Shown: piece by piece, positions 12,544-13,749 of the stretch | Numbering within the stretch: position 1 is the first letter of the stretch | How the letters are laid out: the number at the start of each line of letters is the position of its first letter | Origin: a virus | Reading direction: 5' to 3' (one strand) | DNA length: 23,008 nucleotides | IMG/VR virus record: IMGVR_UViG_3300033463_005627 | Location: 1 to 23,008 of that record | Notes under the pieces: generated by a model | The model's input: only the letters and a program-made list of their open reading frames with translations | What the model was told of the DNA's origin: nothing | The model's database searches: none | Program-made: the position numbers and the translations under genes

Positions 12544-13749
12544 CATTTATACCGCTCATTACTGAGTACTTTAACTCTGTTTTCAACAGACGGATTAGAC
12601 TATCTCATCATCCACACATAAGTGTTAGGATGCGGTGCGCTTCCAGCGGTACGTCTCCGCTGTACTTCCTTTCGGAATAGTCGTTACAAAAAGAAATTAT
12701 TCTGTTTTATATGTTTCATTGTTAACAATGTGATATATCGTTTTAATACTCGAACGTGATTTAAACTTTTCATAGATTTGAGGTACTTTCATCCCGTCTT
12801 TATACATCTGCCTAATAGTGTCAACCTCATCTTGTGAAAATTTGGCATTATTATTTCTACATCCATTTTGACGTCCTTTTGGTTTTGTGTGCTTTTTTCT
12901 ATTATTTGGAAGATCGCTCTGTATGTGCTTAAATGTATTATTGTTCCAAACATCCATAAATGTATTGAAGTTTTCTATCCCTGAAATTTCAAATACTTCA
13001 GCGCACGATAACCGCCCTTTGTTGTATTCATCTCTTATCAATATTACTTGTTCATCTGTAACAACTTTAATTGATTCATGAGATTGAACTTTATCATAAT
13101 TGTTTCTATGAAAATTTTTATTTTCGTCTGTATAAACGTCTAAATGGATATTTTTCCATGTTTTGCCATGCCAGATATCATTGAATGTATTTATGCTAAT
13201 TTTGTCAGCGTATTTTTTATAAACATTCTGTTTGTCATCATGTTTATTATACGACTCCCTAATATCCCAAATCTCTTCAGATGTCATTTTTGAATTTGGA
13301 TTATCTTCATTTAATAAATAAGAATTAAGATTCCCGCCGGTTGATATATTGTACCCAGCATCACGATTTGTAGAATTATATTTCTAAATATAATATATTT
13401 CACGTTCATTTAATTTTTCTTTATCACATTCTTCAAGGATATCAAAAGAAAATGCATCAACACCGTATTTATACATCGCTTTATACAAATAAGAATCTTT
13501 TCTTTCCGACTCTTGTTTATATTTACGCTTATGTTCTCCCCATCTTCTTTTTATATCAATTGATTGTCCAATATATACTTTATTGTTAACAAGATTTCTT
13601 ATAATATATATTCCAGCCATAATTTTCCTTCTCGGTATTGCCCTAAGTATAGGGGTTTCACCGATAGCATATTTTTAATACACCCCAATTTGTAAGATTG
13701 GTTCACACCGTTTTCATTTACACATTACTGTGTAAAGGCACTTCAATTA
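12544..13749 (-). mobile_element. Group I intron (T4 td-like, IA2-like) interrupting the thyX-like gene and carrying a GIY-YIG homing endonuclease ORF
   Basis: The intron begins UAAUUGAAGUGCC, where exon 'GCAU' can pair with 'GUGC' to give P1 with a U-G pair at the splice site. It has a GUAA-capped hairpin UUUACACA-GUAA-UGUGUAAA and AAACGGUGUGAACC (td has AAACGGGGAACC). Downstream of the ORF it has AACGACUAUUCCGAAAGGAAGUA (td has AACGACUAUCCCUUUGGGGAGUA), GAGAUAGUCUAAUCC (td has GAGAUAUAGUCUG) and a GAAA-capped hairpin UCUGUUGAAAACAGA. It ends ...AUAAAUG. The non-ORF RNA is about 280 nt. The intron is 1206 nt, a multiple of 3, so the exons join in frame. Confidence 0.6.
12697..13620 (-). CDS. 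GIY-YIG homing endonuclease (I-TevI-like), intron-encoded; one in-frame TAG at 13384..13386
   Basis: N-terminal 'GIYIIRNLVNNKVYIGQSIDIKRRWGEHK' is a textbook GIY-YIG motif. 'EREIYYI-TAG-KYNSTNRDAGYNISTGG' parallels I-TevI 'ERENFWIKELNSKINGYNIADATFG' across the TAG. The downstream 196-aa part carries repeated NTFNDIWHGKTWKNIH / NFNTFMDVWNNNTFKHI DNA-binding-type repeats. The ORFs 13384..13620 and 12697..13287 are in the same frame with no other stop between them. Confidence 0.8.

Follow-up and report, generated by a model that had tools for sequence, protein, structure and literature searches.

A predicted mobile group I intron in a ThyX-fold phage gene, with an endonuclease frame that contains an in-frame UAG codon

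Introduction

The viral record IMGVR_UViG_3300033463_005627 of IMG/VR (positions 1 to 23,008; this whole stretch of 23,008 nucleotides is called the window) contains two short open reading frames (ORFs) that resemble the two parts of a ThyX-like protein, and between them lies a 1.2-kb insert with the frame of a GIY-YIG homing endonuclease. The question raised by this locus is whether the insert is a group I intron that leaves the RNA by splicing, the decayed remnant of such an intron, or an endonuclease cassette that has split the gene in the DNA. Textbook cases of mobile group I introns that encode GIY-YIG endonucleases are known from nucleotide-metabolism genes of phages (td and nrdB of T4). 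The analysis described below indicates that the insert at 12544..13749 is, with high probability, a mobile IA-type group I intron in the catalytic-motif region of a ThyX-fold phage gene. All coordinates follow the numbering of the window, and the ThyX-like gene, the intron with its structural elements and the endonuclease ORF are all on the minus strand.

Results and discussion

The interrupted gene

Exon 1 (13750..13947) has 66 codons, ends in ...GCG ACG CAU, and aligns to residues 1-66 of uninterrupted homologues. Exon 2 (12109..12543) has 144 codons plus a stop codon (12109..12111), and begins with UUU GCA CGA CAC UGG, encoding F A R H W. The 1206 nt between them (12544..13749) consist of 129 nt of non-coding sequence, the 924-nt GIY-YIG frame (13620..12697) and another 153 nt of non-coding sequence, the portion outside the ORF amounting to 282 nt. 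The insert is absent from intron-less alleles, and its two ends are matched by two covariance models of group I introns (see below). It opens with a UAA that is in frame with exon 1 and directly follows CAU. When it is removed, the two ORFs form a 210-aa protein with the sequence ...SWVATH|FARHW... at the junction, the insertion point being between H66 and F67, immediately 5' of the RHW-x7-S motif. Insertion at the most conserved motif of the ThyX-like gene is what is expected of homing sites.

A sequence search with the joined 210-aa protein gave 2635 protein matches at E ≤ 1e-3; those listed are mostly about 200-210 aa long, and the top one covers 98% of the query at 91% identity. When 17 sequences (the joined protein and 16 uninterrupted homologues) are aligned, no gap occurs at SWVATH|FARHW. 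The DNA is contiguous across CAT|TTT in two intron-less IMG/VR alleles (L001 and L002) and in a sister phage (L254), the uninterrupted gene of which encodes a 91% identical protein and has the same gene order around it as in the window, with ThyA-like and nucleoside-deoxyribosyltransferase-like neighbours. The insertion site reads GCCACTCAT|TTTTCCCGTCAC in the intron-less alleles L254 or L001. The two ORFs are one gene, and exact excision of the insert restores the conserved 210-aa frame.

These results bear out the initial annotation, which had taken a 66-codon and a 145-codon ORF for the parts of a single gene, separated by 1.2 kb with about 280 nt of non-ORF sequence, and had placed an in-frame splice at CAU|...G|UUU to give WVATH-FARHW. 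The terminal G of the intron is position 12544; sliding the boundary by 1 nt leaves the exons unchanged but would put a U at the intron end. The last three intron bases (12544..12546) are AUG in frame with exon 2, and for this reason ORF finders call a 145-aa 'protein', which is found in public collections as P0016. The fragments of the split locus in such collections are 66, 78, 196 and 145 aa long. A megablast search of 12000..14100 against phage genomes gave zero matches, and none of the ten loci found by the exact core pattern GATGAGATAGTCTAATC has an intron in a ThyX-like gene.

Structure of the ribozyme

The 5' ribozyme half occupies 13621..13749. In its first paired element (P1), the exon sequence GCAU pairs with GUGC of the internal guide sequence (13738..13741), with a U.G pair (U13750.G13741) at the splice site. 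P2 (13717..13736), which is closed by a GUAA loop of the GNRA type, is followed by the 5' strand of P3 (CGGUGUG, 13704..13710) and then by two extra hairpins, A (CCAAU...AUUGG, 13685..13701) and B (GUGUAUU-AAA-AAUAUGC, 13667..13683). The element map next places P4 (UCGGU/ACCGA), whose strands at 13660..13664 and 13632..13636 enclose the joining segment J4/5 (GAAAC) and P5 (CCCUA/UAGGG, 13641..13654). P6 is formed by GAAGGAAA (13624..13631), which holds a Shine-Dalgarno sequence, and UUUCUUUU (12689..12696), and the endonuclease ORF is in its loop.

The 3' ribozyme half (12544..12696) begins with the latter strand of P6. P7 (GACUAU/AUAGUC, 12677..12682 and 12598..12603) is formed by an R-like element, AACGACUAUUCC, and an S-like element, GAGAUAGUCU. 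Between the P7 strands are P7.1 (UCC-GAAA-GGA with a GNRA loop, 12667..12676), P7.2 (CAGCGG-AGACGUA-CCGCUG, 12644..12662), the 3' strand of P3 (CGCACCG, 12633..12639), P8 (12609..12632) and J8/7 (AUGAG, 12604..12608). The terminal domain comprises P9.0 (CCG/CGG, 12591..12593 with 12552..12554), P9 (12576..12590), the sequence UUAAAGUA, and P9.1 (12555..12566, with a GUAA loop, again GNRA), and the intron ends in ...UAUAAAUG. The P1 with its U-G pair, the GNRA hairpins, the R and S elements of P7 and the 3' end thus all lie where the initial annotation had put them.

When the ORF-deleted RNA is folded without constraints, the predicted structure contains P2, the long-range P3, hairpins A and B, P4-P5, P6, P7.1, P7.2 and P8. 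The minimum free energy is -83.2 kcal/mol (z = -4.68), and 0 of 200 shuffled sequences are equally stable. P7 cannot be shown by a nested fold, because it is pseudoknotted with P3. The helices P7.1 and P7.2, which mark the IA type, are found between the 5' strand of P7 and the 3' strand of P3, and both covary in relatives. The order typical of subgroup IA, in which P3 leads directly to J3/4 and P4, is not found, hairpins A and B being in between. The intron is of the IA type by P7.1/P7.2, has its ORF in the P6 loop, and represents a subclass of its own, marked by the two hairpins that separate P3 from P4.

Covariance models built from relatives

Relatives of the intron were gathered in IMG/VR by two DNA patterns, each of which gave at least 120 loci. 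The pattern for the subclass, TGAAC-N(8-30)-GGTGT-N(6-36)-GCTAACGGT, is found on at least 120 IMG/VR contigs. Two covariance models were trained on the relatives alone, with the window left out, and the window was then searched with filters off. Model R1 covers the exon end to P4 and is based on 22 sequences; 14 of its 17 pairs show compensatory changes. Model R2 covers J6/7 to the 3' end and is based on 15 sequences with 33 pairs; in its alignment, 83% of the cells are paired, compared with 38-46% when the partners are slid.

Each model finds a single match in the window. The R1 match (13656..13763) scores 58.3 bits (E 1.3e-13), and the R2 match (12543..12693) scores 104.7 bits (E 7.2e-20) and ends at the predicted splice site, while the next-best matches of either model score about 10 bits. 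The match of the group I features is therefore far beyond chance. Long-range pairing is also seen to covary: P3 (CGGUGUG/CGCACCG in the window) is CUCUGUG/CGCAGAG in the relative L014 and CCCGGUG/CGCCGGG in L129, and the third pair of P9.0 alternates between C-G and G-C among the relatives.

Conservation between two intron-bearing lineages

The closest homologue of the endonuclease (P0121, 76% identical) is encoded on four contigs from different samples (L250-L253), in which the orthologous gene is interrupted by this intron at the identical position; the P1 of L250 is identical to that of the window. The exons of the two lineages are only 78% identical, with a proportion of synonymous differences (pS) of 0.70 and a ratio of non-synonymous to synonymous differences (pN/pS) of 0.15, and the endonuclease genes are 80% identical. 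The pN/pS value indicates that selection still acts on the protein product of the interrupted gene.

The non-coding intron RNA, in contrast, is 92% identical in its 5' part and 97% in its 3' part, whereas the synonymous differences in the exons and the endonuclease gene amount to 0.5-0.7 per site. The few differences in the RNA are located in loops or preserve pairing: a C-G pair is replaced by U-A in P2 and likewise in P5, with changes on both sides, and a G.U pair of hairpin B is replaced by A-U through one change. The ribozyme RNA is therefore far more constrained than neutral sequence would be. Together with the selection on the split gene, this constraint is the strongest in-silico argument available for splicing. 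The group I core is thus present, with P1 and its U.G pair, P3-P8, P4-P6, P7 with its R and S elements, P7.1/P7.2, the P9 domain and the terminal G, and its RNA is under strong constraint.

The endonuclease gene and its in-frame TAG

The ORF in the P6 loop (12697..13620, 307 codons) had been described as a GIY-YIG homing endonuclease, and this identity is confirmed by Pfam (PF01541, 49.6 bits against a cutoff of 22.6, E 5e-13), by a PHROG of homing endonucleases (E 1e-36) and by the catalytic domain of I-TevI (1MK0/1LN0, E 2.7e-9). In the alignment of the homologues (A5), GIY...YIG, R26, E74 and N91 are invariant; the last three correspond to R27, E75 and N90 of I-TevI, the numbers of which are taken from the 1MK0/1LN0 alignment. 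The homologues are about 300 aa long and similar along the whole length. No locus was confirmed when IMG/VR was searched with the endonuclease protein.

The part of the description that does not hold is that the frame is open under the standard code. Codon 79 is TAG (13384..13386), and ORF finders consequently report the endonuclease as 78 + 196 aa. The codon is TAG in both lineages, and the L250 lineage has three further TAGs, at codons 151, 191 and 234, the window codons at these positions being CAT, CAA and CAG, respectively. The Q at codon 79 of P0121 was rejected as evidence for the amino acid, as L250-L253 have TAG there under translation table 11, and the Q reflects the gene caller's choice of code.

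Weighing the intron against its alternatives

Several points weigh against the reading of the insert as a functional intron. Splicing itself is a prediction from sequence comparison. P1 has just 4 bp, and the proposed P10 has 4 bp of which two are G.U. The in-frame TAG closes the endonuclease ORF under the standard code. To our knowledge, the two hairpins between P3 and P4 are not part of the textbook group I scheme, and no description of them was found in the papers searched. Finally, the Rfam group I model (RF00028), which the initial annotation had proposed as the check, has no match in the whole window at its gathering score (50 bits), Rfam giving only the tRNA there. With the threshold relaxed to E ≤ 10, nothing relevant is found in 12400..13900 or in the 5' half, and in the 3' half there is a 5'-truncated match over J8/7, P7 and P9 that stays below gathering (16.4 bits, E 0.033).

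Control searches show how the Rfam result should be taken. A td intron of the T4 type, I-TevI ORF included, scores 42.5 bits with RF00028 and is also under the cutoff. Five ORF-less introns of the subclass (L021, L043, L117, L122 and L129) are unmatched at gathering, and so are the subclass introns of L107 and L119, where the sole matches are at other places. Twort introns, in comparison, score 64-101 bits in the same search. Because a T4-type td intron and ORF-less relatives fail as well, the Rfam test is uninformative here, and the proposed check is not valid for introns of this kind.

Of the alternatives, decay of the intron is the better one, although it appears improbable. It could take the form of a ribozyme that no longer splices, with the ThyX-like gene a pseudogene, or that of a dead endonuclease in an immobile intron. 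The in-frame TAG and the short P1 would agree with it, but the low pN/pS of the exons and the near invariance of the ribozyme RNA across two diverged lineages do not. Nor does the endonuclease gene look dead. Between the window and L250, its ratio of non-synonymous to synonymous substitution rates (dN/dS) is 0.12 before the first TAG, 0.16 after it, and 0.20 after the fourth and last TAG of the L250 lineage, and the 307 codons contain no frameshift, TAA or TGA in either lineage. The endonuclease as a pseudogene was rejected on the dN/dS values. As purifying selection continues past the TAG with no frameshifts or other stops, the ORF appears to be translated through UAG. Moreover, all seven in-frame stops in three endonuclease ORFs (that of the window intron, that of the L250 type and a free-standing one in the window) are TAG, and a tRNA gene with the anticodon CUA is 2.3 kb away.

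The other alternative, a free-standing endonuclease cassette that splits the gene in the DNA, with the halves translated separately and not spliced, for which Aeh1 nrdA had been cited as the parallel, would account for the UAA that ends exon 1, the intron-final AUG in frame with exon 2 and the missing Rfam match, but is highly improbable, given that the 282 nt around the ORF match group I models and are conserved next to synonymous sites that are 50-70% diverged, that the AUG at 12546 lacks, by sequence, a good Shine-Dalgarno motif ahead of it, and that this AUG is not kept at the 3' ends of related introns, which are mostly ...AAAGG.

The intron reading is thereby upheld by the exact excision, the R1 and R2 matches, the unconstrained fold, and the constraint on the RNA in the second lineage.

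Proposed course of splicing and homing

In the proposed scheme, a ribosome translating exon 1 after transcription would stop at the initial UAA of the intron. Once the RNA has folded, free guanosine would attack between the two U residues at 13750/13749. The 3'-OH of exon 1 that is released in this way, kept in place by P1 (GCAU/GUGC), would then attack after G12544, and CAU would be joined to UUU, with exon 2 aligned by P10, for which UGAA of the intron and UUUG of exon 2 are a weak candidate. The Shine-Dalgarno sequence of the endonuclease gene is one strand of P6, and the folded ribozyme would hide it. The full-length endonuclease would be made by means of the phage tRNA-CUA at the UAG codon, would cleave intron-less alleles close to where the intron inserts, and repair would copy the intron into them. 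Indirect evidence of such homing is the presence of the same intron at one site in two lineages with exons only 78% identical.

The tRNA-CUA and the use of UAG

The tRNA gene (10185..10277, minus strand) has the anticodon CUA according to ARAGORN (cta) and a variable arm of about 20 nt, and scores 58.9 bits with the Rfam tRNA model. The label 'Pyl' given by ARAGORN is due to the anticodon alone. In the sister phage L254, which lacks the intron, a tRNA-CUA of different sequence, also with a long arm, is located at the syntenic spot (12184..12271). The endonuclease frame would be open only if UAG is decoded, and the full-length enzyme would need the phage tRNA-CUA, which is presumed to be the means of translating the ORF through its TAG.

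As to the amino acid, the discriminator of the tRNA, with the acceptor stem read by eye, appears to be G73. Under the identity rules of bacterial tRNAs, a class II arm together with a G73 discriminator points to serine, while glutamine is the usual amino acid for UAG. The features of this tRNA suggest an identity of the serine type, and the exchanges between CAA/CAG and TAG seen between the lineages are the pattern that glutamine recoding would give.

Among the window genes of at least 90 aa, the stop codon is TAA in 14 and TGA in 12, and TAG in none; the single TAG-terminated ORF of the window corresponds to the N-terminal part of the intron-encoded endonuclease. In-frame TAGs occur in only two of the convincing genes of the window, both encoding endonucleases. 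This usage fits a phage in which TAG is reassigned and the early-type genes stay readable in the standard code.

The second endonuclease gene (17063..18346, minus strand, 427 codons; PHROG 314, E 1.5e-19) encodes a GIY-YIG protein and is free-standing, between a gene with an MVP-shoulder domain and a gene for NAD-dependent DNA ligase. It has two in-frame TAGs in the catalytic domain (18188..18190 and 18074..18076). It is absent from L254, where the flanking genes are separated by two small ORFs only. A second intron around this gene was considered and rejected, R1, R2 and Rfam matching nothing there.

These observations may be combined into a wider interpretation, which is offered tentatively and is, in our judgment, slightly more doubtful than probable. 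UAG would be a sense codon read by the phage tRNA-CUA, and in the region of replication and nucleotide metabolism only the homing endonuclease genes would use it internally. Synthesis of the endonucleases, and with it homing, would depend on an active suppressor tRNA, while the host gene would be expressed by splicing regardless, and the intron would belong to a large two-hairpin subclass that is not seen by Rfam.

The host protein and its gene neighbourhood

The assignment of the host protein to ThyX had been made from sequence motifs, and it stands at the level of the fold but not at that of sequence profiles. The Pfam Thy1 family (PF02511) scores 19.6 bits, below its cutoff of 24.8, and over residues 94-135 only. 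When PDB sequences are searched with a profile of the protein family, no ThyX is matched at E ≤ 1, and a PHROGs search with the family gave nothing useful. The AlphaFold2 model, in contrast, has a mean predicted local distance difference test score (pLDDT) of 84.9, and all 50 PDB matches listed by Foldseek are ThyX, or flavin-dependent thymidylate synthase (FDTS), with probability 1.00, template modelling (TM) scores of 0.48-0.55 and 10-13% identity. The host protein thus belongs to a ThyX-fold family, the relationship being one of predicted fold.

The motif RHW-x7-S takes the place of RHR-x7-S of ThyX, the host family differing from canonical ThyX in the second arginine. The reading RHW was correct, but it is not peculiar to the gene of the window, as had been thought: in the 17 aligned sequences, W71 is nearly invariant, and R69 and H70 do not vary at all. 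The named homologues nearest to the protein belong to Lachnospiraceae (Anaerocolumna). None of the papers searched was found to report an intron in thyX. The intron host gene described here is accordingly a new one, from a widespread ThyX-fold family with RHW for RHR.

The gene is part of a cluster on the minus strand (11435..14725) that encodes a ThyA-like protein (PF00303, E 1e-17), the ThyX-fold RHW protein, a DUF1599 protein and a nucleoside 2-deoxyribosyltransferase-like protein. The ThyA-like gene is directly upstream of the ThyX-like gene, and DUF1599 is the 'nucleotide modification associated domain 1'. Genes for a dUTPase (4069..4563) and the large subunit of ribonucleotide reductase (5868..8135) are near the cluster. 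The presence of ThyA-like and ThyX-like proteins together suggests that at least one of them makes a product other than deoxythymidine monophosphate (dTMP), possibly a modified pyrimidine.

Farther away on the minus strand are genes for an integrase (996..2231; PHROG 1, E 2e-37) and a DNA methyltransferase (3041..4069). With these two genes present, the element may be a temperate phage or a prophage.

Comparison with known systems

The td intron of T4, which encodes I-TevI, belongs to subgroup IA2 and interrupts a thymidylate synthase gene of the ThyA type, and its endonuclease ORF is located in the P6 loop. The window intron shares with it the location in a phage nucleotide-metabolism gene, the start UAAUUGA... 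with an in-frame UAA right after the exon, the presence of P7.1 and P7.2, P7 strands (AACGACUAUCCC/GAGAUAUAGUCU in td) that are nearly the same, a GIY-YIG endonuclease gene between the ribozyme halves with a similar catalytic domain, and, when the ORF is included, a score below the Rfam gathering threshold. In contrast, the host protein of the window has the ThyX fold instead of that of ThyA, and td lacks the two P3-P4 hairpins, R1 giving no match to it at E ≤ 1. R2 scores td at 46 bits and Twort at 53 bits, compared with 105 bits for the window. The 3' domain of the window intron has the order P9.0-P9-UUAAAGUA-P9.1, in the C-terminal two thirds of its endonuclease no similarity to solved structures of I-TevI is detected, and its endonuclease ORF contains a UAG. 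The term 'T4 td-like' used in the initial annotation is therefore supported for the class and the layout, but not in the sense of close kinship.

Both ends of the intron resemble those of other phage group I introns, namely in Twort orf142, in thyA of a Bacillus phage and in the split tape-measure gene of Geobacillus virus E3. The P1-P2 regions of Staphylococcus phage Twort orf142 (L019) and Bacillus phage PJN02 thyA (L020) are 92-94% identical to that of the window over 32-36 nt. The related introns differ from that of the window in host gene and insertion site, and several have the ORF in P5 or P8, instead of in P6 as in the window. Rfam finds the Twort introns, in which the two extra hairpins are missing.

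The closest likeness in architecture is with the E3 tape-measure intron (L021) and the metagenomic set, which share with the window the order UGAAC-hairpin-GGUGU-hairpin-GCUAACGG before P4, then P7.1/P7.2, a P9.0 of the form CCC/CCG...GGG/CGG, and the end UAUAAA(U/G)G. The two P3-P4 hairpins define this large phage subclass and covary within it. Group I introns also occur in clusters in related phages, with two in tandem in L017 (8884..9632) and three subclass motifs in L207. In L006, a subclass intron (6837..7250) is 2.2 kb downstream of an intron-less ThyX-like gene. It is likely that introns of the subclass are unannotated in many cases, splitting genes such as the tape-measure gene, as is shown for E3. 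Such introns are probably under-annotated in phage metagenomes, because gene callers fragment the genes concerned and the Rfam model misses the whole subclass.

With respect to the UAG codon, the nearest parallel is with the Agate phages, in which in-frame stops in an intron endonuclease of an early gene have been proposed to block its synthesis until late in infection, when a suppressor tRNA becomes active (Borges et al., bioRxiv 10.1101/2021.08.26.457843). The two systems are alike in having an intron-encoded homing endonuclease with in-frame stops. They differ in the codon, which is TGA (read as W) in the Agate phages and TAG, with a class-II-like tRNA-CUA, in the window, and in that the in-frame TAGs of the window are confined to two endonuclease genes. 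If the wider interpretation given above is true, the window would be the equivalent, for UAG, of the TGA case proposed by Borges et al., and its UAG-containing endonuclease genes, together with the conserved tRNA-CUA, would be a compact case of stop-codon recoding that controls a selfish element.

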